NCBI GenBank assembly: GCA_964421995.1
Contig: CAYQYW010000005.1
Coordinates: forward strand, 2,203 to 66,202
Source of the DNA: an uncultured Candidatus Saccharibacteria bacterium
GTDB lineage: Bacteria; Patescibacteriota; Minisyncoccia; Phycocordibacterales; CAYQYW01
Direction: 5' to 3'
DNA: 64,000 nucleotides
Part shown: positions 11,986 through 50,155 of the stretch, one piece after another
Layout of the letters: each line of letters starts with the position of its first letter
Position numbering within the stretch: position 1 is the stretch's first letter
Notes under the pieces: generated by a model
Databases searched by the model: none
Told to the model about the DNA's origin: nothing
The model's input: only the letters and a program-made list of their open reading frames with translations
Made by a program: the position numbers and the translations under genes

Positions 11986-11995
11986 AATACTATAT

Positions 11996-23100: not shown

Positions 23101-23472
23101 ATGTTTTCCGTATACAATAAACAAATGAGAACTGCACTACTTATCATTCTTTTTGTACCTGTTGTTGCTTCAGCGCAAGTTATGCAGTGCGACAGTATAC
23201 AGCTAATAGATAACATTATTAAATTTCTTGTAGGGTTAGCTGTTGTGATTGCAACACTTTTCTTTGCTTTTGTTGCTATTAAATATATTACGTCTGGCAC
23301 GAAGCCAGATAAAGTTAGTGAAGCTCATAAAATATTCTTTGATATACTATTTGCTTTAGTAATTGTTCTTATACTATGGTTTACTGCTGATGTGATTCTT
23401 CGGGTGATTCCTATAGAAAATATAGAACGGAGCGGGATAACCCCGTGGTCAGAAGTGATTTGTATAGATTGA
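23101..23472 (+). CDS. TrbC/VirB2-like pilin-like small membrane protein, diverged sixth paralog
   Basis: Signal peptide (VVASA-QV). Helix LVGLAVVIATLFFAFVAI, charged loop SGTKPDKVSEAHK, helix FFDILFALVIVLILWF. Same architecture as the 12-13.5 kb array. Confidence 0.4.
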   Translation: MFSVYNKQMRTALLIILFVPVVASAQVMQCDSIQLIDNIIKFLVGLAVVIATLFFAFVAIKYITSGTKPDKVSEAHKIFFDILFALVIVLILWFTADVILRVIPIENIERSGITPWSEVICID

Positions 23473-25888: not shown

Positions 25889-25920
25889 AGTGATACTATA
25901 TACAGGATTAGTAAATAAAC
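25856..25920. repeat. 65-bp perfect direct repeat, copy 1 (miaA first 11 codons plus 32 bp upstream)
   Basis: AGTAGGTCCAATAATTGTAATTATTTTACGCATAGTGATACTATATACAGGATTAGTAAATAAAC, identical to 26728-26792. Confidence 0.9.
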
Positions 25921-25940
25921 AATATTTTACTTCCTCCAGA

Positions 25941-26636
25941 ATGAAGATTTATGATATGGATTTACAAGAATTTAAAACTCAATTTATAAAAAATGAACTG
26001 GAGATTACCAATAAATATGGAAAAATATTTTCTTTTATTGATTTTTCAAATGTAAATAATTGGTTTGAAAATGATACACAAGATTGGAATAATAAGCTTA
26101 TAGAAAAAAATGAAAAAATTGGAATTGATATTGCTAAATTAAAAAGATTTTCAGATATTTTTAGTCATAGAGTTAGGACCTACTATGGAGAAGATCCAAA
26201 AAATCCTAAATCTCTTGGTTTTACTCATGTTACAAGAAAGATTTTTAATAGAAGAAACGTTGTCACTAAAGATTTACAAAAAATTAAGCATTATATAGAG
26301 ATTGACAATAAAAAGGAGGAAAAATTTATTACTACAGATAGTGATGGCAATAATTACATAGAAATTCGTAAGTGTAATTTTGACGTTGAGATTTCAGTTG
26401 ACGCAATTAAAATGCTCAATCACTATGATACTTTTTGTATTTTTTCTGGAGATGCAGACTTTGTATACTTGAATAATTTTTTAAAGAAAAAAGGTAAAAA
26501 AGTGATTATTATAAAAGGAGGTTATATAATGACAAAATTAAGAAAATCTGCAAATTTAGTAATTAATGCTCAAAATATTAAAAAACATATAGCAAAAATA
26601 GAAAAAAGACCTGACAAGTCAGGTCTTTTCGGATAG
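25941..26636 (+). CDS. NYN-domain (LabA-like, PIN-like nuclease fold) protein
   Basis: FIDFSNVNNW near the N-terminus and FCIFSGDADFVYLNNFLKKKGKKVIII near the C-terminus are NYN/LabA hallmarks. Extremely AT-rich. Start set at MKIYDM (25941), so the gene no longer overlaps miaA. Confidence 0.6.
   Translation: MKIYDMDLQEFKTQFIKNELEITNKYGKIFSFIDFSNVNNWFENDTQDWNNKLIEKNEKIGIDIAKLKRFSDIFSHRVRTYYGEDPKNPKSLGFTHVTRKIFNRRNVVTKDLQKIKHYIEIDNKKEEKFITTDSDGNNYIEIRKCNFDVEISVDAIKMLNHYDTFCIFSGDADFVYLNNFLKKKGKKVIIIKGGYIMTKLRKSANLVINAQNIKKHIAKIEKRPDKSGLFG
26608..26629 (+). terminator. Rho-independent terminator overlapping the end of the NYN gene
   Basis: GACCTGAC-AA-GTCAGGTC hairpin followed by TTTT. Confidence 0.5.
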
Positions 26637-32297: not shown

Positions 32298-32515
32298 TCA
32301 CTACAATAAATACTTCAAAAACTAATTCTTGTCAAATTTCTTGCAGAATACTTCATTTTATTTTTGAATATTATATTTTTTTTAAAATTTTATATCAAAA
32401 TAATATTGAAAATACATGGTTATTCTCTGTACATTATTGACACCCATTTTTTTATAATTCGTTATATCTTATCCACCTCTCTAGATCAGAACTCGGCGCT
32501 ATACTAGACTTAACG

Positions 32516-32543
32516 AGGCAGTCCACTTGGTGAGGGACTGCCT
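32516..32543 (+). promoter_or_regulatory. Perfect 9-bp-stem hairpin in the topA/nrdA divergent intergenic region (possible nrd leader structure or operator)
   Basis: AGGCAGTCC-(10 nt)-GGACTGCCT. Not followed by a T-run. Confidence 0.25.
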
Positions 32544-32613
32544 TAAGTAACTCTCATGATGTCACCCTGACGCTTTATACTTTAGAAACCTTATCCGCAT
32601 AATATAGATACAT

Positions 32614-35406: not shown

Positions 35407-35407
35407 T

Positions 35408-36445
35408 ATGTCATCAATTAAAAAAACAACAGAACGAACTAATGTTAATAATCGAAGGATTATTAACGGAAAAGATGCAGATGTAATTCAGCTCTATCCA
35501 ATACGACATACCTTTGCGTGGGACGCGTACTTGGCTGCCAACGCAAATCACTGGCTGCCAACGGAAATAAATATGCAGAAGGATGTTGAGCAATGGAGAT
35601 CTTCTTCAGTGCTTACCGATGACGAGCGACAAGCATTTGAGACCGTGTTGGGATTTTTCTCGACAGCTGACTCTATTGCAGCAAATAATGTGGTAATGGC
35701 CACCTACCCCCATATTACGTCTCCTGAGTGTCGTATGTACCTCCTTCGACAGGCATATGAGGAGGCAATTCATACCCATGCATATCAACACATTGTAGAG
35801 ACGCTTTCATTAGACGAAGGAAAGATCTTTAACATGTATCGAGAAGTTGAAGCAATTTATGCAAAGGATGATTTTGCACTTACCTTTAATGAAGGTATCT
35901 TTAATCCTGCTTTCAAAACAGGAACTTTCGATGCTGACCAATTATTCCTTGAAAACATGTGTGTTTTTTCACTTGTCCTCGAGGGAATCTATTTCTATAC
36001 TTCATTTGCCGTAGTCTTTGGATTTCAACGACAGAATAAGATGGTTGGTTCTGCTGAACAGATTCAGTACATCATGCGGGATGAATCAATGCATCTTAAC
36101 TTTGGCATTGATATCATTAATACGATTAAAGACGAGCAGCCTGAACTATGGACACCAGGATTCCAGGAACGAATTATTACGCTGGTGAAGAAGGCAACTG
36201 AACTTGAATATACGTACGCGAGGGAAGTATTCCCTCGAGGAATTTTCGGCATGAATGCGGATGGATTCAAGCAGTACATTGAAAATATTGCAGACAGACG
36301 TTTGAACCGAGTAGGACTTCCTTCTCAGTTTAATGTAGAAAACCCATTTCCATGGATGTCTGAGGCAATTGATCTTTCAAAGGAGAAGAACTTCTTTGAA
36401 ACAAGAGTTACTGAGTACAAGATAGGAGGTACGCTTGATTGGTAG
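35408..36445 (+). CDS. nrdB: Ribonucleoside-diphosphate reductase beta subunit
   Basis: Ferritin-like diiron motifs EEAIHTHAY and MRDESMHLNF. Start placed at MSSIKK (35408), immediately after the nrdA stop. Confidence 0.9.
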   Translation: MSSIKKTTERTNVNNRRIINGKDADVIQLYPIRHTFAWDAYLAANANHWLPTEINMQKDVEQWRSSSVLTDDERQAFETVLGFFSTADSIAANNVVMATYPHITSPECRMYLLRQAYEEAIHTHAYQHIVETLSLDEGKIFNMYREVEAIYAKDDFALTFNEGIFNPAFKTGTFDADQLFLENMCVFSLVLEGIYFYTSFAVVFGFQRQNKMVGSAEQIQYIMRDESMHLNFGIDIINTIKDEQPELWTPGFQERIITLVKKATELEYTYAREVFPRGIFGMNADGFKQYIENIADRRLNRVGLPSQFNVENPFPWMSEAIDLSKEKNFFETRVTEYKIGGTLDW

Positions 36446-36446
36446 T

Positions 36447-36626
36447 ATGCCTAAAAGTATTGAATCATCAGGTGATGAAATACGAGAGAAGAAGCGTGTT
36501 GAACGTATTCGTGAACTTGACGCTCTTTCTTACAAAATTTTGCGTACCGGAAAAAACAAAACTGAGCGTGAAAATATCTGGGAAAAAATAAAAGACTTTA
36601 GAGATCAAGTTGATAAGCTTGTGTAG
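36447..36626 (+). CDS. Hypothetical small charged/coiled-coil protein
   Basis: About 60-aa ORF directly after nrdB. No family recognised. Confidence 0.2.
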   Translation: MPKSIESSGDEIREKKRVERIRELDALSYKILRTGKNKTERENIWEKIKDFRDQVDKLV

Positions 36627-36631
36627 TGTTG

Positions 36632-37480
36632 TTATACCCGCTTCATCTTTCCAAGTCTCTCCTGAATTAATCCTTTAATACTCATTGTGTGAAGCATTAT
36701 TTTCGCTTCTCTCTCTGACATATCCATTTGATTGATGAGTCCTTCTTTTGACATAGGTTCTCGCAATAGCCAGAGAACCTTTTTTTCTTTTTCAGTAGGT
36801 ATGGGGAGTTCGTGTTGAATGGTTCCAAGGTGTAGTGCTTCAATAATATCCTCACTTTTGGTAATGGGTGTAGCACCAAGTCGTATTAACATGTGTGGTC
36901 CGTAGGAGGTTGTATGGAAAATTGAACCAGGAATCGTTAGTACATCTCTGTTATAATCCAGCGCGAGTCGTGAGGTAATGAGTGTCCCCGATTTGTTCGT
37001 TGCTTCGACTACGAGTGTTGCATGACTCATTCCTGCCATGATTCTATTTCTTTCTGCAAAACTTCTCGGCATCGCTCGAAACTCAGGATCAAACTCAGAA
37101 AGCAGTGCGCCTCCTGACTCCATAATCATGTGTGCGAGTGGCTGATTTGTTTTTGGATACAGTACAGAGTCATCGAGCCCTGAACCTGGAACGGCTACCG
37201 TGTGAAGTCCTGCGGCTAATGCTGAACGGTGTGCAATTGCATCAATACCGAGCGCAAGTCCGGAGACGATTGAAATGTTGTGTCCTTTGAGCCCTGAAAG
37301 CAGTTTTTCACAACAATATTGCCCGTATGCTGAATATTTCCGAGAACCCACCACACAAAGTAATTTAGTAGTTAAACTCGGGAGCTCTCCTCGGACAAAG
37401 AGTTGTTTGGGTGGATCGGGGATCTCCTTCAGCAATTCTGGGAAGGAGTTTTCCGAAAGTTGTCTGATTGCACGTGTCAT
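36632..37480 (-). CDS. dprA: DNA processing protein DprA (Smf)
   Basis: Rossmann-like core VVGSRKYSAYGQ...IVSGLALGIDAIAHRSAL...VAVPGSGLD. Confidence 0.85.
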   Translation of the reverse strand: MTRAIRQLSENSFPELLKEIPDPPKQLFVRGELPSLTTKLLCVVGSRKYSAYGQYCCEKLLSGLKGHNISIVSGLALGIDAIAHRSALAAGLHTVAVPGSGLDDSVLYPKTNQPLAHMIMESGGALLSEFDPEFRAMPRSFAERNRIMAGMSHATLVVEATNKSGTLITSRLALDYNRDVLTIPGSIFHTTSYGPHMLIRLGATPITKSEDIIEALHLGTIQHELPIPTEKEKKVLWLLREPMSKEGLINQMDMSEREAKIMLHTMSIKGLIQERLGKMKRV

Positions 37481-37524: not shown

Positions 37525-38790
37525 ATGCTAGATATTAAATTTATTCGAGAAAACCTAGATTTAGTCAAAGAGGGGGCTAACAAGAAGTACATTAATGTTG
37601 ATATTGATGGACTGTTAGTAGTGGATGATGAGCGGAAAAAATTGATTGGGTCGCTTGAAGCAAAGCGGGCAGAGCAGAATTCTTTTACTGCAAAAATTGC
37701 ACAGGAGCAGGATCCCGAAATAAAGAAGAAAATGATTGAACAGATGCGGACTCTAAAGGATGGAATGCAGGAAGAAGAGGAAAAATTAAAGGAAGTGATG
37801 CGAGAGTGGCAAACACTCATGATTCAAGTTCCTAATGTTCCTGACATGACAGTTCCTGAGGGAAAGGATGATGCTGATAATCAGCAAATTCGAGTTTGGG
37901 GAGACAAATCAGAATTTCCATTTGAACCAAAAGGTCATATTGAGCTCATGGAAAAGCATGACATGCTAGATCTTGAACGAGGCATCAAGGTTTCAGGATT
38001 TAGAGGATATTTCTTGAAAAATGACGGTGTACTCTTGAACTTTGCACTATGGCAATTTGCTGTTGAACACTTTACGAAACATGATTTTACTCCACTTCTA
38101 GCACCTTCACTGGTTCGAAGAGAGACACTTCTTGGTACGGGATATCTTCCTCAGGGAGAAGATGATCTATATAAGACACAAGATGATGAGTATCTAGCGG
38201 GGACTTCAGAAGTTGCAGTGATGAATTACTATTCTGGAGAAGTGTTGAACAAGAAAGACTTGCCAATAAAATTTTTTGCTTTTTCTCCATGCTTCCGAAG
38301 AGAAGCGGGAAGTCATGGAAAAGATACAAAAGGGATTATGCGAGTGCATGAGTTCTTTAAATTTGAGCAGGTGGTGCTTTGTGAGGCAAGTCATGAAGCG
38401 TCAGTAGCGCTTCATGAAGAGATCAATAGTAATACTGAAGCATTACTGCAGAAGTTAGGAATTCCATATCAAGTCGTGGTAAATTGCGGAGGAGATTTAG
38501 GACTTGGACAAGTAAAGAAATATGACATTGAGCTATGGGTTCCTTCAGAAAAAAACTATAGAGAAATTAGTTCAGCTTCTTACTTCCATGATTTTCAATC
38601 AAGAAGACTTAATATTCGGTATAAAGATACGGATGGCAAATTAAAGTTTGTTCATTCATTAAACGCAACAGCACTTCCGACACCGCGGTCACTCATTGCG
38701 GTAATTGAAAACAATCAACAAGCAGATGGAACCATTAAAGTACCAGAAGTACTACAAAAATACATGGGTAAGGAGGTGATTGGTAGATAG
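37525..38790 (+). CDS. serS: Seryl-tRNA synthetase
   Basis: N-terminal coiled-coil arm, class II motifs (FRRE-type, GSHGKDTKGIMRVHEF), C-terminal GTxxA. Confidence 0.9.
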   Translation: MLDIKFIRENLDLVKEGANKKYINVDIDGLLVVDDERKKLIGSLEAKRAEQNSFTAKIAQEQDPEIKKKMIEQMRTLKDGMQEEEEKLKEVMREWQTLMIQVPNVPDMTVPEGKDDADNQQIRVWGDKSEFPFEPKGHIELMEKHDMLDLERGIKVSGFRGYFLKNDGVLLNFALWQFAVEHFTKHDFTPLLAPSLVRRETLLGTGYLPQGEDDLYKTQDDEYLAGTSEVAVMNYYSGEVLNKKDLPIKFFAFSPCFRREAGSHGKDTKGIMRVHEFFKFEQVVLCEASHEASVALHEEINSNTEALLQKLGIPYQVVVNCGGDLGLGQVKKYDIELWVPSEKNYREISSASYFHDFQSRRLNIRYKDTDGKLKFVHSLNATALPTPRSLIAVIENNQQADGTIKVPEVLQKYMGKEVIGR

Positions 38791-39568
38791 TATGAAGAGA
38801 GGGCTTCGATCTAGAGCACTCGTGCAAAAAAAACGTAAGATTCTATTACAGAAATTTACGGCTCTTTCTTTTATTATTGTTTTTATTTTGAGCTCGTACT
38901 CCGTTTTGTCTCAACTTAAGAGTATCACCATTTCAACAATTGAGGTGCAGGGGAATAACGTAGTATCAGTTCAGGAGCTCACCACAATTGCAGAGAATGA
39001 GTTAGCGGGAAATTATTGGTATTTATTTTCTAAATCAAACATAGCACTGTATTCAGAAAAGAACATCACTGCTTCTGTGTATGATTTGTACAAGAGGATA
39101 AAAAAGATTGATGTGGGAAGGAGAAACCTACAGACTATCTATATGAGAGTTGAGGAGCGGGAGCCATACGCACTATGGTGTACGGATGTTTGTTACTTCT
39201 TAGATGATCGAGGGTACATTTTTGCAGAAGCTCCTGAGTTTACCAGCATGGTGTACTTTACGTATGAAATTCCGCTATCGTCTGACCCCATTGGAACACA
39301 ATTATTTACAGAAAAAGAATTTAGTGAAATAGAGTTGTTATTAAAATCACTTAGAGATTTAGGATTAGTTCCGATAAAGATTTCATTAATTGACGAAATT
39401 GATTTTGAGGTTCAGTTGAAAGATGAAAGCGCCATTATGTTTAGTAGGAATCAAGATTTTGCTGAGGTGTTTGATAATCTTGAATCGGTATACAATGAAA
39501 TTGATGGACTACTAGAATATATTGATTTTAGGTTTGGTAGCAAAGTATATTACCGATATGTGGAATAA
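38780..39568 (+). CDS. ftsQ: Cell division protein FtsQ/DivIB-like (TM plus POTRA)
   Basis: Basic N-terminus, one TM helix, POTRA-like IEVQGNNVVSVQEL region. Start may be the downstream MKRGL. Confidence 0.55.
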   Translation: MVDSMKRGLRSRALVQKKRKILLQKFTALSFIIVFILSSYSVLSQLKSITISTIEVQGNNVVSVQELTTIAENELAGNYWYLFSKSNIALYSEKNITASVYDLYKRIKKIDVGRRNLQTIYMRVEEREPYALWCTDVCYFLDDRGYIFAEAPEFTSMVYFTYEIPLSSDPIGTQLFTEKEFSEIELLLKSLRDLGLVPIKISLIDEIDFEVQLKDESAIMFSRNQDFAEVFDNLESVYNEIDGLLEYIDFRFGSKVYYRYVE

Positions 39569-39610
39569 TTTAAAAAAGCCGTTTTTTGTGATGGCGCCGA
39601 TGGCAGATGT
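39522..39610. repeat. Source copy of an 89-bp segment (ftsQ 3' end / dus 5' end) duplicated in inverted orientation at 42767-42855
   Basis: Appears to be a perfect reverse-complement match to 42767-42855. Confidence 0.8.
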
Positions 39611-40499
39611 AACTGACGCTGCATTTAGGCAGATTATCAATACGTACGGAAAGCCAGATGTTTTCTATACCGAGTTTGTCTCAGCGGACGGACTTTTCCT
39701 CGGTGGCTATGACGCCTTAATTAAAGATCTTTCATTCACTGAAGCTGAACGACCGATTGTTGCACAATTTTTTACCTCAAAGCCTGAATTAATGGAGAAG
39801 GCTGCAACGTTAGCAAAGGAATTAGGGTTTGATGGAGTTGATATAAATATGGGGTGCCCTGATAAATCAATTGAGAAACAAGGAGCTGGTGCATCACTTA
39901 TGAAAAATCCCGCTTTAGCTCAAAAGTTACTGTATGCTGCCAAGAAAGGAGGGCTTCCTGTGTCGGTCAAAATTCGTATTGGATATAATACAAATGAGTT
40001 GCATACCTGGCTTCCTACTATATTAGAAACAGAACCAGAAGCAGTGATTGTACATGCCCGCACTAGAAAGGAAATGTCAAACGTTCCCGCAGACTGGACC
40101 CAAATTAAAAGAGCAGTGGAACTACGAGACGAATGTAATTCTAAATCACTCATTGTTGGAAATGGAGATGTTCTGTCAGTAGAAGATGGTAGACAGAAAA
40201 TAAAAGAAACAGGATGTGATGGAGTGATGATTGGCCGGGGCATATTTGGCAATCCATGGTTGTTCTCTGAAAAGCATGTTTCGATTAAAGAAAAACTAAG
40301 CGTGATGGTGGAACATACCAAATTGTTTGAAGAACTACTTGGAGATGTAAAGAATTTTGCAATCATGAAAAAACATTATAAAGCATACGTTTCTGACTTT
40401 GCTGGAGCAAAAGAACTGCGAATAGAACTAATGAAAGCAAAGAGTGCTGAGGAGGTAGGAGTACGTGTGAATAACTTTATTGAACAGAATCTCGTTTGA
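39558..40499 (+). CDS. dus: tRNA-dihydrouridine synthase
   Basis: FVMAPMADVTDAAFR, TIM-barrel FMN motifs, catalytic Cys region NMGCPDK. Confidence 0.85.
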   Translation: MWNNLKKPFFVMAPMADVTDAAFRQIINTYGKPDVFYTEFVSADGLFLGGYDALIKDLSFTEAERPIVAQFFTSKPELMEKAATLAKELGFDGVDINMGCPDKSIEKQGAGASLMKNPALAQKLLYAAKKGGLPVSVKIRIGYNTNELHTWLPTILETEPEAVIVHARTRKEMSNVPADWTQIKRAVELRDECNSKSLIVGNGDVLSVEDGRQKIKETGCDGVMIGRGIFGNPWLFSEKHVSIKEKLSVMVEHTKLFEELLGDVKNFAIMKKHYKAYVSDFAGAKELRIELMKAKSAEEVGVRVNNFIEQNLV

Positions 40500-40573
40500 T
40501 GTAGAATAGGAAAGATTATGAATATAGGCAAGCAAAAAACTAAACGCAACTCTATATCATTATTTTGTATTTA

Positions 40574-40597
40574 AACCCTCCGTTGGAGGGTTTTTTA
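40574..40597 (+). terminator. Rho-independent terminator after dus
   Basis: CCCTCC-GTT-GGAGGG followed by TTTTTT. Confidence 0.65.
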
Positions 40598-40615
40598 TTA
40601 GCTAACTAAATAACT

Positions 40616-41440
40616 ATGATACATAATCACATACCAATCAAAGACACCAGGAGCTATAGCTTTGCAATTAATAAGCTACGATCGTTTTTCTTGGAAAAAG
40701 GATTTTTTGAGGTGCACACGCAGGATAGGCTGAGTATATTAGCGGCGTGCGAAGACCCTGATACCGTGGCAACCTACGAATATGGTGGTCAAGTATGGCC
40801 GCTTCCACAAACGGGTCAAATGTGGCTTGAGTATGAGCTACTTTCTAATCCAGATCTTAATGGGGTGTTCTGTGTTAGCACAAGCTACCGGAATGAACCG
40901 AATCCAATTCCTGGAAGACACGAAACAATTTTCCCTATGTTTGAATTTGAGTCAAAGGGAACGCTCGATGATCTACGGCAGTTAGAAATTGATCTTTGTA
41001 CATATCTGGGGTTTGGAGACTCCTTTGTACATAAAACATATGATGAGCTCTCTAAAAAATATGGCACCGATGACTTAACTTCAGAAAATGAATTTGAAAT
41101 GGAGAAAGAGTATGGAAAGGTAGTATTTTTAGAACACTTTCCTGAAACATCCTCACCCTTCTGGAATATGAAAAGAAATGGAAAACTTGCAAACAAGATA
41201 GATGTCATCATGCATGGTATGGAAACGATTGGATCTGCGGAACGAAGTTGTGATCGAGATGAAATGAGAGAGCGATTCAACACCATTAGTAATGGAGGGT
41301 ACGCACAGTTACTCTTCGACAAGTTTGGTAAAGAACGAGTAGAGAACGAACTAGATGATTTTCTTACCTTAGAGCTCTTTCCTCGATATGGAGGTGGAAT
41401 TGGAATGACACGGATGGTTCGCGCGCTTCAAAGTTTGTAA
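40616..41440 (+). CDS. Class II aaRS catalytic-core paralog without anticodon-binding domain (AsnRS/AspRS-like; candidate archaeal-type asparagine synthetase AsnA, or an amino-acid ligase)
   Basis: 274 aa. Motif-1-like KLRSFFLEKGFFEVHT, motif-2-like STSYRNEPNPIPGRHETIFPMFEFE, motif-3-like GGGIGMTRMV. Confidence 0.5.
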   Translation: MIHNHIPIKDTRSYSFAINKLRSFFLEKGFFEVHTQDRLSILAACEDPDTVATYEYGGQVWPLPQTGQMWLEYELLSNPDLNGVFCVSTSYRNEPNPIPGRHETIFPMFEFESKGTLDDLRQLEIDLCTYLGFGDSFVHKTYDELSKKYGTDDLTSENEFEMEKEYGKVVFLEHFPETSSPFWNMKRNGKLANKIDVIMHGMETIGSAERSCDRDEMRERFNTISNGGYAQLLFDKFGKERVENELDDFLTLELFPRYGGGIGMTRMVRALQSL

Positions 41441-41501
41441 TCTGTACCAGTTTGGTATATAGTCAAAAACGGATGTAGGGAAACCTACAGCTATAATTCC
41501 T

Positions 41502-41530
41502 AGACCCCCTTTGCCGAGGGGGTCTTTTTA
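41502..41530 (+). terminator. Rho-independent terminator
   Basis: AGACCCCCT-TTGCCG-AGGGGGTCT followed by TTTTT. Confidence 0.7.
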
Positions 41531-41553
41531 GTGCGTGTGGTATACTACGTTAC

Positions 41554-42567
41554 ATGAATGAAGTTGCATTATATAGAAAATATAGGCCGGGATCTTTTAA
41601 AGAAACGTTGGGCCAGGATGATATCGTATCTGTCTTGGAGGGAGCAATACGTCGTGGAAATATATCACATGCCTACCTCTTCTCAGGGTCACGTGGCACC
41701 GGAAAGACAACCTTTGCTCGTATTTTTGCCAAGGCAATTGGCACAACCACTAATGACCTCTATGAAATTGATGCCGCCTCAAATAGAGGAATTGATGATA
41801 TTAGGGAATTACGAGATGCAGTGAATGTACTACCGCTTGAGTCTAAGCGAAAAGTATACATTATTGATGAGGTACATATGCTTACCAAAGAAGCATTTAA
41901 TGCGCTTCTCAAAACGCTTGAAGAGCCACCACGACATGTGATGTTTATTCTTGCAACGACTGAATTTGAAAAACTACCTGAAACCATCATATCTCGTTGT
42001 CAGTCATTTACGTTCAAAAAACCTTCTACTCATGTATTGCGTAAGATGATCACCTCGGTAGCAAAGAAGGAAGGGGTAAAAATTGACGCTGCGGGTGCGG
42101 AATTAATAGCACTTCTTGCAGATGGATCTTTTCGTGATGCTCATGGCGTCTTGCAGAAAGTGCTTGCTTCAGCGGAGTGTGAAATTACAGTAGCAGACGT
42201 AGAGAAAATTACGGGAGCGCCTAAGGGATCATTAGTAAATGATTTAGCTTTAGCACTCGGAAATAAAGATGTAGCAAAGGCGTTGAATTCCGTACATTGT
42301 GCAGTTGAAGGGAATGTTGATATGAAAGTATTTATAAAATTGTTGCTACATAAGCTGCGTGCCGTGTTGCTACTTCGATATGCGCCTGACATTAATCAAA
42401 AAAGTCATTTTTCAGATGAAGACTACATGTTCTTAACTTCATTAAGTAAGGAGAAGGGAATTGATGCTTCTCTCTTAAAAGAATTTCTAGAAGCATATAG
42501 TGGGATAGGTTCTGCAAGTGTTCCTCAGTTACCGATTGAATTGGCTATTGTGAATATTATAAAATAG
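41554..42567 (+). CDS. dnaX: DNA polymerase III subunit gamma/tau (short form)
   Basis: YRKYRPGSFKETLGQDDIV, P-loop GSRGTGKTT, box VYIIDEVHMLT, sensor region SRCQSF. Confidence 0.85.
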   Translation: MNEVALYRKYRPGSFKETLGQDDIVSVLEGAIRRGNISHAYLFSGSRGTGKTTFARIFAKAIGTTTNDLYEIDAASNRGIDDIRELRDAVNVLPLESKRKVYIIDEVHMLTKEAFNALLKTLEEPPRHVMFILATTEFEKLPETIISRCQSFTFKKPSTHVLRKMITSVAKKEGVKIDAAGAELIALLADGSFRDAHGVLQKVLASAECEITVADVEKITGAPKGSLVNDLALALGNKDVAKALNSVHCAVEGNVDMKVFIKLLLHKLRAVLLLRYAPDINQKSHFSDEDYMFLTSLSKEKGIDASLLKEFLEAYSGIGSASVPQLPIELAIVNIIK

Positions 42568-42585
42568 TGTTTCAATACGTCTATT

Positions 42586-42656
42586 ACCGGATCGTCTAAT
42601 GGTAGGACGCTTGGTTTTGGTCCAAGAAATCGGGGTTCGAGCCCCTGTCCGGTAGC
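42586..42656 (+). tRNA. tRNA-Gln (anticodon TTG)
   Basis: TACCGGATCGTCTAATGGTAGGACGCTTGGTTTTGGTCCAAGAAATCGGGGTTCGAGCCCCTGTCCGGTAG. U1-A72 pair as in bacterial tRNA-Gln. Loop TTTTGGT. Confidence 0.75.
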
Positions 42657-42766
42657 CGTTTGAATATTTGAACCGATTTGCAAGCTCCGCATACGGAGTA
42701 TTGGCTTTCTTCCCTCTACGACACAGTTCGAGGTAATAATTTTCAGCAATCTGCGCTTTCCAAGCA

Positions 42767-42855
42767 CATCTGCCATCGGCGCCATCACAAAAAACGGCTT
42801 TTTTAAATTATTCCACATATCGGTAATATACTTTGCTACCAAACCTAAAATCAAC
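42767..42855. repeat. Inverted perfect 89-bp copy of the ftsQ/dus junction (39522-39610), lying in noncoding DNA downstream of tRNA-Gln
   Basis: Reverse complement reads TTGATTTTAGGTTTGGTAGCAAAGTATATTACCGATATGTGGAATAATTTAAAAAAGCCGTTTTTTGTGATGGCGCCGATGGCAGATGT. Confidence 0.8.
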
Positions 42856-43050
42856 ACATTCCATTGGTCCAAATGTTCAGCCAACAAATCATTACTATGC
42901 AGAAAGCGTCGAATAATTTGTTTAGTGAATATCCTCACGCAGATTTGTGGTGATTCTTTTATCAAATTACACTGTCGTGTTTAAGATTTGTTTCTGATAT
43001 ACACTTAACTATCTCAAATGCTTCAAAAGTTGAGACACTAAGTCTCCAAA

Positions 43051-43083
43051 AGAAGTTCGAGGTGCGTCCCGTTGCGGGTAGCA
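43051..43083 (+). repeat. Degenerate copy of the tRNA-Gln 3' end (att-like scar A)
   Basis: AAGAAGTTCGAGGTGCGTCCCGTTGCGGGTAGC versus tRNA 3' end GGTTCGAGCCCCTGTCCGGTAGC. A shorter GTTCGAGGT fragment also occurs at 42727-42735. Confidence 0.45.
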
Positions 43084-43184
43084 TCAGTCATTAATGTACT
43101 ATTACTGTGTCATGTATAAATAGGAGTGACATGTTCTATTAGTTGTAGAGTTGTACGCATACTGATAATGCAAGATCTCATGAT

Positions 43185-43685
43185 ATGCTGTATTTTATGA
43201 AGTCCAATTATGCATTTATTGATGCACAAAATCTTTATCTCGGTTCGAAGCAAGCTAACATTAATCTCAGTTATCGGAAGTTTCGTGTTTACTTAAAGGA
43301 AAAATATAATGTAGAGCGTGCATATATTTTTATTGGATACTTGCCAGAAAATCGAGAGCTGTATGATTATCTGCAAGACAGAGATTATCTCTTAAAATTT
43401 AAGCCAGTACTTCCAGCTGGAAACGGTCAAAAACAAAAAGGTGATGTTGATGCTGACATGGCATTTAATACAATGCGCTATTATCAGGAGTATGGTAAAG
43501 CAATTTTGGTAACGAGTGACGGAGACTTTGATACGTTGGCGAGTTTTCTACGAACAAAAGACAAATTGGGTGGTGTGATCAGTCCTAATAGAGATAAGTG
43601 TTCTTCTCTTCTGCAAAAAGCAGCAAAAGGTAAAATGTTTTATCTTGAGGATGTTGGAAAGAAAATAATGAAAAAGCACCGCTAG
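43185..43685 (+). CDS. NYN-domain (LabA-like) protein, second copy
   Basis: AFIDAQNLY near the N-terminus. KGDVDADMAF and LVTSDGDFDTLASFL are NYN acidic-residue motifs. Confidence 0.6.
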   Translation: MLYFMKSNYAFIDAQNLYLGSKQANINLSYRKFRVYLKEKYNVERAYIFIGYLPENRELYDYLQDRDYLLKFKPVLPAGNGQKQKGDVDADMAFNTMRYYQEYGKAILVTSDGDFDTLASFLRTKDKLGGVISPNRDKCSSLLQKAAKGKMFYLEDVGKKIMKKHR

Positions 43686-43803
43686 AGGACGGAACCTATA
43701 GCAGTGCTTTTTCCTGATGATACATATATCATTACACAGATGAATAATAGAAGCAAGTGTGGTCCTACTATAAGGAAAGCATTACATGATATAATATATC
43801 CTG

Positions 43804-43834
43804 AAAAGTTCGAGGTACGCCCCTGTCCGGTAGC
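43804..43834 (+). repeat. Degenerate copy of the tRNA-Gln 3' end (att-like scar B)
   Basis: AAAAGTTCGAGGTACGCCCCTGTCCGGTAGC, that is the tRNA-Gln 3' end with a 5-nt insertion. Ends 6 nt before the next start codon. Confidence 0.5.
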
Positions 43835-43840
43835 AATTAT

Positions 43841-44977
43841 ATGATCAATATGATAAAACAGAAATTTCTTGATTATCATCGTTCGCATGGATTTAAAATT
43901 TATGACTCATTTCCACTGGTGATTGATGACCCTACTGTTCTTTTTACTAATGCGACCATAACACCTTTTAAGTCTATGTTTACAGGAGAAGTAAAAATGG
44001 AAAACTATGCTCTCTCACAAAAATGTTTACGTTTGGGTGGTACGGCAGGAAATCTTGAGACGTCTCGATCTGATATAAATTATACATCTTTGTTTGATAT
44101 GCTTGGCAGTGGTTTTTTTAATGTGAGCATGAATGAAGCAGTACATTATTTTGTAGAGCTACTCTCAGAAATAGGTTTTTCACAGGATCGTCTCATATTT
44201 TCAACCCTATCGGGCGTCGGTTTTGATGAAGCACTTAAATGTGCAGGCGTTGCTTCTCATCAAATATTTTTATTTGATCCCTCTGATAAGACTTTTCTTC
44301 ATGAATGGAGTTTTGGAGAAGGAGATTTACACGGACACGGTATAGTAGTTCGAGTTATTCCTGAGGAAGAGGTAACTCTTTCTAAAGACAACATAGTCGA
44401 TAAGTTTTCAGAGTATATTCAAATTGGAAGAATAGTTCATATTAATGGTATATCACATGAAAATAAAACTGTTGAAGAATTTCCATATATGGCTTTTGAT
44501 GTGGGACTTGGTTTAAGTAGAGTTGAATGTGCCCTTTTAGGAAATTCTGAATCATCAATGCGCCCATGGAGAGAAATTTCATATAATCTTCAAGGTGTGA
44601 TTCCTGGATTATCTAAAGGTGATGCTCATTATATTGCAAATTTATATTATGTAGCTAAAAGTCTTATAAGCGAGAAACTAGTACCTGGGAAAAAGAAACA
44701 TTCCTATGTTCTGCGGAAAATTATACGATTATTTATTGAAGAACTTTGGGTTAAGTCAAAAAAACTTGTAGATATTGTTGAACTTATTAGTCAACCACAG
44801 AGGTTATCAGATAATGAACTATTTTTTGAAATTATTTCACAAGAAGAAAAGGCACTTCGTAAGATACTTTCTAAAGCATTGAAAAAAAGACAGGAATACT
44901 CTACTATGAGCCCTGAAGAGTTATGGTCTACTTTTGGCATTAAAGGTAATCTCCTTAATCTTTTGAAACAAGATTAA
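43841..44977 (+). CDS. Mini-AlaRS paralog: alanyl-tRNA synthetase catalytic plus tRNA-recognition domains only (no editing or C-Ala domains)
   Basis: Collinear with E. coli AlaRS residues about 1-440. [36 protein letters not shown] matches [51 protein letters not shown] matches [28 protein letters not shown] matches [24 protein letters not shown] matches RGYVLRRIIR. The conserved FFEMLGNFSFGDYF block is degenerate ([11 protein letters not shown]). Confidence 0.6.
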   Translation: [378 protein letters not shown]

Positions 44978-46443
44978 ATATCGAGCGTAACCAATGGATT
45001 TTCATTTTGATATAGAAGAGCATTTGATTGATAAATTCCACTCATTATTTTTACTGGCATGGTCTGTGAATCTATATTAGATTTCAGATCTTCTTTTTTA
45101 ATATTTCCAAGCATAAAATTAAGATATTCTAAGATTACCCGATCTTTTGCTTTTTCAATGGTTAATTGGCCGTCAATGTTTTTTTCGATATCTTTTCCTG
45201 TAATCTTTTTAAAAGAACTTCCAGACCCAAACATTTTATTATTTCGGAAAATATAGATATCAAAGTGATTGTTGCCACCGATATCAAATTCGTCTGTGTT
45301 ATCAATATCATGCATATCTTCTGACTGATAATTGTGAACATGAATAGACTGGAAAGGTCCTTGTTGAATTATGAACTGTTGATGTTTTACTCGACCATTT
45401 CCTTTATATAAATCTTTGTTTGGAATTGCCCAAGCACGCTTCGAAAAGCTATTGTGTAATAAGTTAATAGACACGTTACAGATATTTTCACCATTTTTTA
45501 AGAATCGTAAAATATTAAATGAGTCAATTTCTCCATATTCTTTAGTTTCCTCTACATATTCTTCTCGAGTTAGATTAGATTCTTGGTATTCTGACTTAAA
45601 ATAGTTACGATAATCTCGTTCAGTTATATTCACCCTAAAGCCACTTGGAAATAACGCAGAAGAAAAAATTTGCATACTATTCGGTTGTTTTTCTTGGACT
45701 ATTCCAGCTTCATATAATTGCCAAACCATATCAAAAATATGATATCCACTGTGCGAGCATTTACCATATCCATCCTGATAGGAGTGTGATTTTTGAAAAA
45801 GTATTTCTTTTGGAAAGACCCACGTTCCATCAGCATGCATTGCTTGAATTGAAGTAACGGGTATGTTAAATTTTTCCTTTGCTTCTATAATTAGTTTTTT
45901 TACTTTTTCAAAACCATAATCGTATCTTCGTTGTATATTTATTGAAAAAATTGTTGATTTTTTATCCTGCACTTTCTTGTATGACTCAAGAAGATCATAA
46001 TAATCCTCCAATACTCCGACAGCTTGAGAGAGTTTTGTATTCTGAAATTTTCTTACAGAAATAGGTTTATCCATAAGAATGTGTAAATTTCGCTTAAGAG
46101 CCCATTCTGCGTATACTTTGTGAGATAAGGGGTCTGTTGAGATAATCACTCCAGTAATATTGAACTTATCTACAAATGCATCAAGTTCACTAATAACATT
46201 CTTCTGAAGACTTAACCCTAGTTCAATGGAATTAGAATCCAAATAATCAGTGTCCAAATAAATCATTTCAAGATCATAATTGTTTTCATGTAAATATTTC
46301 TCTATAACGTCTTTTTGTGAAGTTAGATCTACACCACCAACTAAGGTAATTGGCATAGATTTTGAATATCTTATTAGTGTAGGAATGTATATTCTTCGAG
46401 CATGAAATCCCGCTCCTATGAGCATAATGTTGATTGAAGCCAT
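44974..46443 (-). CDS. Gfo/Idh/MocA-family NAD(P)-dependent oxidoreductase
   Basis: N-terminal Rossmann IMLIGAGFHARRIYIP. MDKPIS resembles the family EKP motif. About 30% GC. Confidence 0.55.
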   Translation of the reverse strand: MASINIMLIGAGFHARRIYIPTLIRYSKSMPITLVGGVDLTSQKDVIEKYLHENNYDLEMIYLDTDYLDSNSIELGLSLQKNVISELDAFVDKFNITGVIISTDPLSHKVYAEWALKRNLHILMDKPISVRKFQNTKLSQAVGVLEDYYDLLESYKKVQDKKSTIFSINIQRRYDYGFEKVKKLIIEAKEKFNIPVTSIQAMHADGTWVFPKEILFQKSHSYQDGYGKCSHSGYHIFDMVWQLYEAGIVQEKQPNSMQIFSSALFPSGFRVNITERDYRNYFKSEYQESNLTREEYVEETKEYGEIDSFNILRFLKNGENICNVSINLLHNSFSKRAWAIPNKDLYKGNGRVKHQQFIIQQGPFQSIHVHNYQSEDMHDIDNTDEFDIGGNNHFDIYIFRNNKMFGSGSSFKKITGKDIEKNIDGQLTIEKAKDRVILEYLNFMLGNIKKEDLKSNIDSQTMPVKIMSGIYQSNALLYQNENPLVTLDI

Positions 46444-46513
46444 TTGATTTACTTAAATTTGATAATAAAATCTATCATAGCATTTTTTTACATTTATTGT
46501 ATAATTGTGATTA

Positions 46514-47322
46514 TGTTAGATACTACTTGGAAAGTCAAAAAAATAGAGTCTAAAAATGATTTTGATCCAGGTATACTACTTCCTCAACTTGCGAACAATG
46601 ACATTCCAGCAATACAAATAGCCAATTTTTATTCACCGGATGTGCTAGATACAATTGTGAAGAATATATTTTCACAGGGGATTCTATGGTATCAAAATTT
46701 TGAATACAAACAGGGTAGAATTGGTGTTTGTGCGACTGAGTATTATTCGAAACTAAATGGAAAAGCAGCTTATTTTGCGCTTGAACCAGAACATTCTCGT
46801 ATTAGAGAAAACATTTTTTCTACTACTCTAGATCCAGTTAACAAACTGATCGAGTTATTTTCTATTAGTTACAAAACAAACATTGCTCGTGAGCCTACTA
46901 TGGGGAATTTAAAATATTTTTCTGGTATTATTCGTGCAATGCAACAAAAAAGTACTGCACATTTTGACTATGCCACTCATCAATTACCAGGGTGGTGGGT
47001 TTCAAACATGGAAGCACAGTTCGGTATTGTTATTTATTTACAAATGCCTGAATTAGGAGGAGAGTTAACTATATATAATCGACCGTGGATACCTGAGGAT
47101 GATAAATATAATCAAGACGTAGAAGAAAAGGGTCCAAAAGGTTTTGATGAAGGACTTTTAAAAAATGTTCCTTCAACAACAATTACTCCTCATGTAGGTG
47201 ATGTAATTATTTTTAGCACAAGAAACTTTCATCAAGTTGATGGTATTAATTCTGATACTATTCGTTTGACTTGTAATTCATTTGTAAGTCTTAAAGACAA
47301 CAAACTTTATTTGTGGAGTTAA
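46514..47322 (+). CDS. 2OG-Fe(II) oxygenase-superfamily-like protein (PhyH-like)
   Basis: Putative facial triad AHFDYA (HxD) ... HVGDVIIFSTRNFHQV, with RLT 11 residues after the distal His (RxS/T 2OG-binding-like). Start moved to MLDTTW (46514). Confidence 0.4.
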
Positions 47323-47334
47323 TAGAATATTTTC

Positions 47335-48171
47335 TTACCACAGGTCTGACAACGTGTAGTCATGGAATTGATTCATAACTGTTTTTGTGATTAATCCAAC
47401 TTTACCATCTCCAACAGGATTATTGTCTATTTTAGTGACGGGAACCACCTCTTTAGCACTTACCGACAAGAACACTTCTGATGCATTCTTAAGATCATCT
47501 ACTGAAAAGTCTTCAACTACAATTGGAATATCAAGTGTTAGGGTTTCAAGTAATACTCCTCGTGTTATTCCATATAAAATGTTATTTTGCGGAGTAAGAA
47601 GCCTGTTGTTTATAACAGCAAAAATATTACTACAAGCACCCTCTCGCACTATATTATCTGAATGGTAAATTAGTTCAGCAATACTTAATGATTCAAAAAG
47701 ATGTATGTTCCGTACTAATTCAATATAGTTATTAGTTTTTGCGTTTGCTTTGTACCGTTCAAATTCAATCAGGTGTACACTTACTCCATCTTCATACATT
47801 TCTTTTGCAAAAACAAAAAACGAATCAACAATAATCATTATGGTCGGTGTTTTTGGTGGAACTAAAGTGTTTGAGGGTCCGCCTGAAATAACAATTCGGA
47901 GAACTTTTTCATCAGCAGTTTTATTTTTAGCAAGCGTATCGAAAACCCACTTAATGATTTGTTTTTTCTCCCATGGAATTGAAAGACTTATACTAGCTGC
48001 CGATTGATAGAGTCGATCAATATGTTTTTTTAGTATAAACGGTTTATGGTGTGGATATGTTCTTATCAATTCAAAAACTGCATATCCTCGAGAATACCCA
48101 AGATCTCGTGGAGAGATAAGAAGTTCTTCCTCAGAAACAAATGATCCATTTAAAAAGTGAATATTAGTCAT
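47335..48171 (-). CDS. Class IV PLP-dependent aminotransferase (D-amino-acid / branched-chain aminotransferase or ADC-lyase family)
   Basis: GYAVFE, TNNYIEL and EGACSNIFAV blocks typical of fold-type IV enzymes. PLP-Lys region present. Confidence 0.65.
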   Translation of the reverse strand: MTNIHFLNGSFVSEEELLISPRDLGYSRGYAVFELIRTYPHHKPFILKKHIDRLYQSAASISLSIPWEKKQIIKWVFDTLAKNKTADEKVLRIVISGGPSNTLVPPKTPTIMIIVDSFFVFAKEMYEDGVSVHLIEFERYKANAKTNNYIELVRNIHLFESLSIAELIYHSDNIVREGACSNIFAVINNRLLTPQNNILYGITRGVLLETLTLDIPIVVEDFSVDDLKNASEVFLSVSAKEVVPVTKIDNNPVGDGKVGLITKTVMNQFHDYTLSDLW

Positions 48172-48283
48172 TGTGTTTTATTATACTGCATTAGTATTAC
48201 ATATGTAAAAATCAGTGCAACAAAGTAATAAAAAGCTTATTTGACATTTTTATAATATTTCTGATATTCTATTATAACTAATT

Positions 48284-50155
48284 ATGGAATACAGTGAGGC
48301 TAGAAAGCGATATCTTAAATTTTTTCAGAAACGAAAACATGCGATTGTTCCATCTGCATCACTTGTACCAATAAATGACCCAACCACTTTATTTACTGGG
48401 TCTGGAATGCAGCCAATGGTACCGTTCCTCTTAGGTGAAGCACATCCTAAAGGATCTAGGATTGTTGATTTACAAAAATGCTTTCGTGCAGAGGATATTG
48501 AAGAAATAGGAGATAATCGTCACACAACATTTTTTGAAATGATGGGGAACTGGTCTTTTGGTGATTATTTTAGAAAAGAACAACTTTCTTGGTATTTTGA
48601 ATTTCTCACAGACGAGATGGATATAGATCCAAAGAAACTTTATGTAACGGTATTTGCAGGAGATAAAGATTTTGATTTAAAAAGAGATGACGAAGCTATT
48701 AGTATTTGGAAGAAACTTTTTGCTGGAAAAGGTATAGAGGCAAAAGATATATACGTAGGAAGCGAAGAGCATGGTGCTAATTTAGATATAGGCGATGCTC
48801 GTATTTTTCAATATACCGCAAAGAAAAACTGGTGGTCTCGAGCCGGGATACCAAAAAATATGCCAGTCGGAGAAATGGGAGGTCCAAATTCTGAAGTATT
48901 TTTTGATTTTGGTACTCCACACGACACCGCTTACGGAAAATATTGTCATCCAAATTGTGACTGCGGAAGGTTTGTAGAGCTTGGAAACTCTGTTTTCATA
49001 ACTCACCTAAAAACAGATGACGGAAATTTTGTATTATTACCAAAAAAGAACGTAGATTTTGGTGGGGGAATAGAACGTCTTGTTGCTATTGCGAATAAGA
49101 ATCCTGATATATTTTCAATCAATATCTTCCAGGGGGTGATTGCAAAGCTTGAAGAACTTTCTGGAAAATCTTACGATCAAGATAAACATGCATTCCGGAT
49201 TATCGTTGATCATATTCGGGGAGCTCTCTTTATGATTGTTGATGGAGTTGTTCCTTCAAACACTGAACAAGGCTATTTCTTACGAAGGCTTCTACGACGA
49301 ATGATAGTACATGCTGATCGACTTACTATTCCTAAATATGGTCTTATAGAACTTCCTGAAATTATTGCTGTTGAGTATAAAGATGTCTACCCAGAATTAG
49401 TTGAGAAGATTTCATATGTACAGAAAATTTTTAGAGAAGAGGAAGAACGTTTCCGTGTCACTCTCACAAAAGGTCTTAAAGAATTTAAAAAGCTTTCTCA
49501 TAACACAAGTTTTATCTCTGGACACGATGCATTTATTCTTTTTTCTACATACGGATTTCCGTTAGAAATTACTATAGAATTTGCTGAAGAATGTGGAATT
49601 ACTGTTGACGAAGAGGCATTCCATGAAGAAATGAAAAAGCATCAAGAGGAATCACGAAAAGGGGTAGGGCAGAAATTTAAAGGAGGTCTTGCAGACAACA
49701 ATGAAAAGATAACTATGCTCCATACCACAACACACCTTATGCTAGCAGGACTTAGAAAATACTTGGGCAAAGATGTACACCAGGCAGGATCGAACATAAC
49801 TGTTGAACGTACTCGTTTTGATTTCACTCATTCTGAAAAAGTTAGTAGAGAAATTCTAAATAAGGTAGAAGAATATGTTAATAGGGCAATTCAAAATAAA
49901 TGTAATGTCATCACTGAACAAATACCAAAAGAAAAAGCAAAGGAACAGGGCGTCGAAGGAAGTTTTTGGGAGAAATATCCTGATACGGTGAATGTGTACA
50001 GCGTTGTTTGTTCAGACGGAACTGTCTATTCAAAAGAATTATGTGGCGGACCACATGTTAAAAACACAAAAGAAATCAAGGGCACCTTTAAAATCAAAAA
50101 AGAAGAGGCTAGTTCTGCAGGGGTAAGAAGAATAAAAGCTATTTTAGAAGAGTGA
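48284..50155 (+). CDS. alaS: Alanyl-tRNA synthetase (catalytic, tRNA-recognition and editing domains; no C-Ala domain)
   Basis: 623 aa. TTLFTGSGMQPMVPF, RHTTFFEMMGNWSFGDYF, GGGIERL. Editing-site HTTTHLM (HxxxH) and CGGPHV (CxxxH). Confidence 0.9.
   Translation: MEYSEARKRYLKFFQKRKHAIVPSASLVPINDPTTLFTGSGMQPMVPFLLGEAHPKGSRIVDLQKCFRAEDIEEIGDNRHTTFFEMMGNWSFGDYFRKEQLSWYFEFLTDEMDIDPKKLYVTVFAGDKDFDLKRDDEAISIWKKLFAGKGIEAKDIYVGSEEHGANLDIGDARIFQYTAKKNWWSRAGIPKNMPVGEMGGPNSEVFFDFGTPHDTAYGKYCHPNCDCGRFVELGNSVFITHLKTDDGNFVLLPKKNVDFGGGIERLVAIANKNPDIFSINIFQGVIAKLEELSGKSYDQDKHAFRIIVDHIRGALFMIVDGVVPSNTEQGYFLRRLLRRMIVHADRLTIPKYGLIELPEIIAVEYKDVYPELVEKISYVQKIFREEEERFRVTLTKGLKEFKKLSHNTSFISGHDAFILFSTYGFPLEITIEFAEECGITVDEEAFHEEMKKHQEESRKGVGQKFKGGLADNNEKITMLHTTTHLMLAGLRKYLGKDVHQAGSNITVERTRFDFTHSEKVSREILNKVEEYVNRAIQNKCNVITEQIPKEKAKEQGVEGSFWEKYPDTVNVYSVVCSDGTVYSKELCGGPHVKNTKEIKGTFKIKKEEASSAGVRRIKAILEE

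Follow-up and report, generated by a model that had tools for sequence, protein, structure and literature searches.

What is the DNA that directly follows a tRNA-Gln gene in an uncultured bacterium, and did it come to lie there by integration at the tRNA? The gene in question, tRNA-Gln(UUG), is found in a 64,000-nt stretch ("the window") of an uncultured Candidatus Saccharibacteria bacterium (GTDB lineage Bacteria; Patescibacteriota; Minisyncoccia; Phycocordibacterales; CAYQYW01), taken from assembly GCA_964421995.1, contig CAYQYW010000005.1, positions 2,203-66,202 of the forward strand. It is followed by a 1,162-bp segment that carries a single gene, for a predicted NYN-domain nuclease, and that is bounded by two copies of the last 16 bases of the tRNA. 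Here we show that the segment is present in some strains of a natural population and precisely absent in at least one. As to its origin, we consider it probable, if not strongly so, that the segment is a decayed, integrase-less remnant of site-specific integration, similar to a cis-mobilizable element (CIME). An earlier description of the locus made from the letters of the window (the sequence-only reading) had listed a number of elements at tRNA-Gln; all of them are present, with several coordinates shifted by 1-2 bases (Table 1).

An allele that precisely lacks the segment

Four metagenome contigs of the same species (L001, L002, L003 and L106) were compared with the window. L001, L002 and L003 carry the occupied form and are 100% identical to the window wherever they cover 42586-43836: L001 and L002 span the entire region, including an inverted copy of the ftsQ/dus junction and both flanks, and L003 covers the segment from 42836 onward. 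L106 carries the empty form: its positions 5911-9208 align to window 39339-42656 at 99.3% and its positions 9193-9265 to 43819-43891 at 100%, and the overlap of the two alignments is exactly the 16-nt repeat, of which one copy is retained. In L106, AATTATATG (the start of the gene for a mini-alanyl-tRNA synthetase, mini-AlaRS) comes directly after the tRNA end and 42657-43818 is precisely absent, so that the tRNA trailer, fragments A and B, the inverted copy, the NYN gene plus hairpin and the prefix part of fragment C are all missing. In the occupied form, on the other hand, the tRNA is followed by CGTTTGAAT at the left junction, and at the right junction GGTAC is followed by the repeat (GCCCC...GGTAGC) and then by AATTATATG. 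The junction of a hypothetical excised circle would read ...GTTCGAGGTAC/GCCCCTGTCCGGTAGC/CGTTTGAATATTTG... (also written ...AAAAGTTCGAGGTAC-GCCCCTGTCCGGTAGC-CGTTTGAATATTTGAACC).

The occupied form was seen in the sample from which L106 itself derives (3300033048, represented by L003) and in two further samples. The DnaX protein of L106 is identical to that of the window. In the adjacent 3.3 kb L106 has private variants, namely a 20-nt deletion that disrupts an aminoacyl-tRNA synthetase (aaRS)-like gene and a single-nucleotide polymorphism (SNP) at 41107, and therefore represents a separate strain, i.e., a distinct and real haplotype. The sequence-only reading had proposed an empty site at tRNA-Gln as a check of its view; L106 supplies one, and on its evidence the region behind tRNA-Gln is a discrete, repeat-bounded unit that is present or absent between strains. 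That reading had also raised the possibility that the repeats and an 89-bp duplicate were artefacts of assembly. They are not, given the 100% identical contigs from three other samples: the occupied region is not an assembly artefact.

Two of the contigs have chimeric ends. Within L106 1-5910 a uvrA of foreign origin has been joined, in frame and at a short common stretch, to the 3' end of ftsQ, and beside uvrA lie a gene for a resistance-nodulation-division (RND) pump and a Y1 transposase gene, from another organism; L001 1-91 consists of 91 nt of a different dnaX. With such ends, caution is due wherever evidence comes from a single contig. De Bruijn assemblers need ~20 or more shared bases for a false join, their k-mers being longer than 16 nt. 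Since the 16-nt repeat is shorter than these k-mers, the empty junction must rest on reads.

The repeated tRNA end and the contents of the segment

The tRNA-Gln gene is located 17 nt downstream of dnaX (41554-42567), in the same spacing context as in L004, L005, L009, L010 and L096-L098. Its final 16 bases, GCCCCTGTCCGGTAGC, comprise the two terminal T-loop bases, the 3' strands of T-stem and acceptor, the discriminator and the first C; an exact second copy is found at 43819-43834, and to the left of the repeat the identity falls abruptly (TTCGA vs GGTAC). Across the 64 kb, GTTCGAGGT occurs only at 42726, 43055 and 43808 (expected 0.32; three occurrences were reached in 0 of 100 shuffles), and the motif AGTTCGAGGT has three occurrences behind tRNA-Gln and no others. 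Moreover, fragments B and C have in common the prefix AAGTTCGAGGTRCG, which is absent from the tRNA and amounts to five extra bases between a T-loop-like GTTCGAG and the tail. The relationship between B and C is thus one that does not run through the tRNA: they descend from one common fragment and did not arise as separate copies of the tRNA end.

The sequence-only reading had placed copies of the tRNA 3' end from 43804 and at 43051-43083, plus a short fragment near 42727; the two copies are real but span 43806-43834 (C) and 43053-43082 (B), and the short fragment (A) is an 11-mer, AGTTCGAGGTA, that starts at 42725 and is identical to one in C. The outer repeat pair is perfect and the internal copy B decayed. 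A perfect core in C next to a decayed B is expected if recombination keeps only the outer pair identical, and the pattern fits an outer pair that is, or recently was, the recombining pair.

Several other identities of the fragments were tried and rejected: i) a tRNA pseudogene or minihelix at B or C, as the intact gene alone is recognised by ARAGORN or by the tRNA model of Rfam (E<=1) and no complementary 5' strand was seen upstream of B or C (judged by eye); ii) a group II intron boundary (GAG/GUGCG at B), as no Rfam intron family matches at E<=1 in 38000-50000, there is no reverse transcriptase and merely 130 nt and 120 nt surround the NYN open reading frame (ORF); iii) a tandem duplication with extended flank homology around A, B and C, none being significant.

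The inverted copy within the segment was taken from the ftsQ/dus junction of the host. As the sequence-only reading had noticed, 89 bp match exactly (39522-39610 vs 42766-42854), and the match extends to 106 nt at 95% (39505-39610 vs 42766-42871). The copy is 100% identical to the organism's own junction and 79-82% identical to the same junction in the closest relatives (L096 and L097, from runs ERR12074392 and ERR12074385), and thus was made within this lineage.

The 89-bp inverted repeats flank a 3.1-kb block with dus, the aaRS-like gene, dnaX and tRNA-Gln. Because the repeat holds the end of ftsQ and the start of dus, an inversion between the two copies would spare all genes; the block has one orientation in every contig seen, and in the relative L008 dus is inverted relative to ftsQ and dnaX. 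The aaRS-like gene between dus and dnaX (window 40616-41440; L106 7188-7992) encodes a 274-aa class II protein consisting of the catalytic core only (AsnA/EpmA/AsnRS-like); the window, L096 and L098 have it, whereas L097 and more distant relatives do not.

The sole gene of the segment encodes a predicted NYN/LabA-like nuclease of the PIN fold: the NYN match scores 56.2 bits against a curated cutoff of 24.2, 832 homologues were found at E<=1e-3, and D13, D89, D91, D112, D114 and D116 are invariant across 17 aligned homologues. Translation probably starts at the ATG at 43197. Homologues of 65-78% identity are common among Patescibacteria, and their gene neighbourhoods vary widely. A mobile NYN cassette that would itself have brought the repeats was rejected, as the homologue loci L084-L095, L099 and L100 are without a nearby tRNA and hold only chance one-mismatch matches to the AGTTCGAGGT-type motif, away from the NYN gene. 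Since homologues elsewhere have neither repeats nor an adjoining tRNA, the NYN cargo does not bring the repeats.

Across the NYN stop codon runs a conserved hairpin, followed by conserved CCTGATGAT up to 43721. It has 17 pairs, with 89% of the cells paired and compensatory changes in five pairs, and none of 500 shuffles was as good; among homologues its frame differs or it is untranslated, and no Rfam family matches it. The hairpin was also seen at or after the NYN stop in unrelated contexts (L084 ~5490-5545, L088 ~3935-3985, L092 ~4950-5005 and L099 788-842), and in L099 it is conserved above the coding region (89% vs ~70%). It may serve the nuclease mRNA as a regulatory or processing signal at the 3' end. 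The window holds one more NYN-domain gene, next to miaA (25809-26636), whose product is longer (275 aa).

Table 1. Features at and around tRNA-Gln, in window coordinates
Feature	Position	Strand	Evidence or remark
Original ftsQ/dus junction, source of the inverted copy	39505-39610	+	ORFs 38780-39568 (POTRA/FtsQ) and 39522-40499 (Dus)
tRNA-Gln(UUG), intact	42585-42657	+	ARAGORN; Rfam RF00005 42585-42655, 57.7 bits
Left direct repeat, attL-like core GCCCCTGTCCGGTAGC	42641-42656	+	Exact 16-nt match to 43819-43834
Strain-variable segment, present/absent, 1,162 bp	42657-43818	.	L106 alignments vs L001-L003
Terminator-like hairpin GCTCCGCATACGGAGT in tRNA trailer	42684-42699	+	Consensus scan only
Fragment A, AGTTCGAGGTA, shared prefix motif without tRNA tail	42725-42735	+	11-mer identical to 43807-43817 in C
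Inverted copy, ftsQ 3' end and dus 5' end	42766-42871	-	Perfect 42766-42854; outer 17 nt with 5 mismatches
Fragment B, AAGTTCGAGGTGCGTCCCGTTGCGGGTAGC: AAGTTCGAGGTGCG then degenerate tail TCCCGTTGCGGGTAGC; candidate fossil att site	43053-43082	+	80% identical to C
NYN (LabA-like, PIN-fold) nuclease gene (predicted), only gene of the segment	43185-43685	+	Pfam NYN 7e-15; PADLOC NYN 1.4e-8
Conserved hairpin across NYN stop codon	43671-43712	+	DNA similarity continuing past the stop
Fragment C, AAGTTCGAGGTACGCCCCTGTCCGGTAGC: prefix AAGTTCGAGGTAC (43806-43818) and right repeat GCCCCTGTCCGGTAGC (43819-43834, attR-like core)	43806-43834	+	
mini-AlaRS gene, catalytic domain only, outside the variable segment	43841-44977	+	Pfam tRNA-synt_2c 1.7e-28

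The locus in relatives and the adjoining mini-AlaRS cassette

Within the Patescibacteria, the organism falls into the Paceibacterota/Parcubacteria group. The gene order serS-ftsQ-dus-dnaX-tRNA-Gln is kept in its relatives L004, L006, L007, L009, L010, L096 and L097, and on the right-hand side of the tRNA nothing is shared. In the two closest relatives (DnaX 80% and 78%) the contig ends one base past the tRNA, and that of a third (DnaX 72%) runs on into an unrelated AIRS-family gene. In more distant relatives, variable accessory or defence genes are found to the right of tRNA-Gln, for example a methyltransferase and a MutH-like endonuclease, DUF4145 and Mrr_cat, DUF2726 and AAA_15, or a zeta toxin.

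A scan of the metagenome contigs for the tRNA tail yielded eight loci. In L110 and L108, a 19-nt direct repeat of the tRNA-Gln end lies 144 nt downstream; in L113 (196-371), an intact tRNA-Gln is followed by a 49-nt spacer, an exact 55-nt copy of its 3' part (from the D-loop) and then a terminator; the other copies of the tRNA-Gln end are partial (L114), diverged (L109) or inverted (L111). Tandem duplication does not explain the copy in L113, as no second spacer comes after it, and the locus looks like an integrated element that was nearly fully deleted. With downstream copies in several relatives, recombination has thus recurred at the 3' end of tRNA-Gln in this group.

A conserved structured insert of ~120-160 nt sits between tRNA-Gln and the downstream copy of its 3' end at L110 2605-2720 (identical in L108), L114 1090-1228 (minus strand) and L109 6087-6241. 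It consists of a long closing stem with the tRNA-end copy plus two internal hairpins, and occurs at tRNA-Gln(CUG) and tRNA-Gln(UUG), in different contexts and in three species (nhmmer E 1e-28 to 1e-30). It was found neither in the window nor in ~120 other loci, nhmmer finding its own three species only; an assignment to signal recognition particle (SRP) RNA, a ribozyme or another known RNA family was rejected for want of an Rfam match; and homology of the segment ends to the insert was plausible by eye and not significant. The insert could be a new small RNA or a miniature element made up of attachment (att) sites only.

To its right the segment abuts the mini-AlaRS cluster. The sequence-only reading had suggested that the whole 42.6-48.2 kb stretch may be one composite island, and this part of it is not borne out as stated: in the empty allele mini-AlaRS stays joined to the tRNA, its start lying 6 nt past the tRNA end (junction from L106), and no second copy of the repeat or of the prefix that would bound the cluster exists elsewhere in the window. 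One island of that extent is therefore unsupported and, with the NYN segment separated from it, the mini-AlaRS cluster needs an explanation of its own.

Judged by its genes, the cluster is an accessory cassette. The cassette (window 43841-48171) comprises an aminotransferase IV, a WelO5-like 2-oxoglutarate (2OG)/Fe(II) oxygenase, a GFO/IDH/MocA oxidoreductase, Peptidase_S51 and mini-AlaRS; it is represented by ~100 protein clusters, mostly of Patescibacteria, and recurs in unrelated contexts (L101 4029-9122 and L103 4073-9122). In the window, mini-AlaRS is inverted relative to the rest of the cassette, Peptidase_S51 is absent, and the G+C content of the cluster is 0.30-0.33 vs ~0.40 upstream. 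Remnants of Peptidase_S51 or of other neighbours from the cassette were looked for inside the segment, and there are none. Its function may be a biosynthesis that depends on aminoacyl-tRNA. An extended -10-like promoter element, TGATATAAT (43787-43795), is predicted in the segment ~45 nt upstream of the mini-AlaRS start codon. Because this element lies inside the variable segment, the alleles may differ in expression of the cluster; in the empty allele, mini-AlaRS would rely on read-through from dnaX and the tRNA.

Elsewhere in the window, ~4.3 kb (32342-36645) between the topoisomerase I gene and dprA are extra relative to L096 and L097 and hold a class I ribonucleotide reductase operon (a large subunit with ATP-cone domains and a small subunit). 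Moreover, three small ORFs (11939-12331, 12945-13289 and 23101-23472) match T4SS_pilin and TrbC, pilin families of the type IV secretion system.

Origin of the segment and comparison with known systems

Several traits of the locus are those of a genomic island at a tRNA gene: i) the tRNA is intact; ii) the segment starts at the next base; iii) 16-nt direct repeats bound it; iv) an empty site retains one copy of the repeat. The segment has no integrase or recombinase of its own, the NYN nuclease being its only gene. It has attL-like and attR-like sites and is without integration or transfer genes, as is a CIME. In the origin that we favour, that of a CIME-like remnant, one or more small elements would have entered the 3' end of tRNA-Gln by site-specific recombination; the last 16 bases of the tRNA would represent attL and the copy at 43819-43834 attR, and the integrase gene would have been lost or never carried. 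As cargo the element would carry the NYN gene together with the conserved hairpin at that gene's 3' end; at some stage it would also have taken up the inverted 89-bp copy of host ftsQ/dus, and fragments B and A would be relics of att sites left by earlier or tandem insertions. Loss could proceed via excision by a recombinase acting in trans or via recombination or slippage between the 16-bp repeats, and repeat-mediated deletion accounts for the empty allele equally well as excision does. The role of an integrase in making the repeats, the nature of B and A as fossil sites and the direction of the event that separates the two forms (insertion or deletion) are matters of inference.

The sequence-only reading had gone further in proposing serial integration at the tRNA. 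What stands is a repeat-bounded scar, a gene order that ends at the tRNA and relatives with duplicated tRNA ends; an integrase is its putative maker, and a series of events is conjectural: B and A suit fossil att sites, but no allele separates them. Moreover, a number of findings weigh against the origin by integration. Neither the segment nor any window ORF of at least 110 aa (the set covered by the domain search) encodes an integrase, resolvase or transposase, with no match to Phage_integrase, Resolvase, Recombinase or DDE, so that the lack of an integrase claimed earlier is borne out for these ORFs; nor does an integrase adjoin tRNA-Gln in eight relatives. The search for an intact parent element was negative: no viral contig matches the att-like pattern, further comparison with such contigs gave no or random matches only, and neither the segment nor the NYN protein has a match in the phage and plasmid collections. 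NYN homologues elsewhere neither adjoin tRNAs nor carry such repeats, and simple decay of a tRNA end does not account for the five extra bases in B and C. The ~10-20 nt directly past the tRNA resemble the trailer of the relative L098 (p about 0.01), with the 10-mer TATTTGAACC, near the trailer hairpin, in common; this is a hint of a native left end of the segment and of an empty allele that arose by secondary deletion. Finally, L106 is the sole contig with an empty site and is chimeric at its far (left) end.

The missing recombinase and the trailer, which resembles that of L098 as native sequence should, favour a plain deletion polymorphism: the segment would be long-resident DNA, the repeat an old local duplication or an ancient scar, and the loss a matter of RecA-independent slippage or recombination, with no mobile element active and no recombinase involved today. 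Two further points agree with this, in that the segment holds a perfect copy of host ftsQ/dus and hence was resident long enough to gain host DNA, and that the empty haplotype differs elsewhere (the 20-nt deletion and the SNP), as befits a separate lineage rather than a fresh excision. However, an exact copy of the 16-nt tRNA end 1.16 kb downstream needs an origin, for which integration is the standard one; the duplicated tRNA part in L113 is not a simple tandem duplication; the outer repeats are perfect and the inner B decayed; and the junction is also a break point in two other relatives. On these grounds we hold a plain deletion to be rather unlikely. Much less probable still is that the empty site is an artefact of assembly and the region a fixed, immobile relic, identical in all strains. 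The chimeric left end of L106 (uvrA-ftsQ) and its standing as the only contig with the empty junction, beside three occupied and invariant ones, would suit such an artefact; on the other hand, the sides of the junction share 16 nt only, which is too short for a false join given the way assemblers work, L106 has private variants in the adjacent 3.3 kb, and in two relatives the contigs end at this very base.

That the tRNA-like fragments are functional RNA signals, either sites of RNase P or RNase Z type or an antitoxin-like decoy for a nuclease targeting tRNA-Gln, has some appeal in that B precedes the NYN gene by ~130 nt and C the mini-AlaRS gene by 35 nt, that NYN proteins belong to the PIN-like nucleases and that the motif AGTTCGAGGT is significantly repeated. 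Yet the fragments are without a 5' acceptor strand, so that no minihelix is possible (by eye), tRNA models are blank at B and C, the tail of B is decayed, NYN homologues in seven other contexts have neither the motif nor a nearby tRNA, and the empty allele lives without the fragments; such a role is scarcely credible. The CIME-like remnant thus remains our preferred reading. A broader proposal, that Patescibacteria harbour miniature integrase-less elements at tRNA-Gln 3' ends which are moved by a recombinase in trans, is in our view doubtful. If true, the class would range from the structured insert of 120-160 nt (L110, L114 and L109) to the 1.16-kb version with NYN, and tRNA-Gln would be a dedicated hot spot for the exchange of accessory and defence genes in reduced genomes.

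Repeat-bounded remnants behind tRNA genes are textbook knowledge and hence no concept is changed; the value of the locus is local. It provides a base-exact example of a strain-variable insertion in an uncultivated lineage of Patescibacteria, and marks the spot behind tRNA-Gln as a recurrent site of gene turnover across the group. Should a recombinase that acts in trans come to light, the 16-bp site would offer a ready attachment site for this group of organisms, for which we know of no genetic tools.

Among known systems, dusA-specific genomic islands use the 5' end of dus as integration target and bring a replacement dus 5' end (PMC4482086). At our locus, too, a copy of the dus 5' end lies inside a variable segment, but it is inverted and downstream of dus (there direct and upstream), is perfect over 89 bp instead of a 21-bp semi-conserved att site, and comes without a dusA-associated (DAI-type) integrase; the likeness is a lead only. 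The ssrA islands of Dehalococcoides are tandem islands at one RNA gene with repeated 3'-end fragments (PMC3146451). Here, too, the 3' end of such a gene is present in several direct copies, which split a variable downstream region. The ssrA islands are reportedly kilobases long and encode their own recombinases, whereas the partitions here measure 0.1-0.75 kb and hold no recombinase.

Integration sites in tRNA genes are said to have been divided by Williams in 2002 into sublocation classes, and the repeat described here runs from the T-loop to the tRNA end, the span that integrases with a T-loop attB of the Ms6 type duplicate. For mycobacteriophage Ms6, attB lies in the T-loop of tRNA-Ala (PMC1762012). 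Unlike in that type, no integrase or attP parent was found here, and the right copy has five extra bases between GTTCGAG and the core.

The closest known category is therefore the CIME, because attL and attR are kept and the recombinase is absent. CIMEs are elements that keep attL and attR and have lost the integration genes (PMC5704250). The present segment differs from them in that it is 1.16 kb long with a single gene, that no related integrative and conjugative element (ICE), integrative and mobilizable element (IME) or integrase is known from this organism or turned up here and its mobilisation is putative, and that its host belongs to the Patescibacteria (candidate phyla radiation, CPR) instead of being a streptococcus. 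It resembles them in its site at a tRNA 3' end, in the intact tRNA, in direct repeats of the tRNA end, in the absence of an integrase and in the matching empty site; moreover, its internal att-like copy (B) is similar to the chimeric att sites that tandem accretions show.

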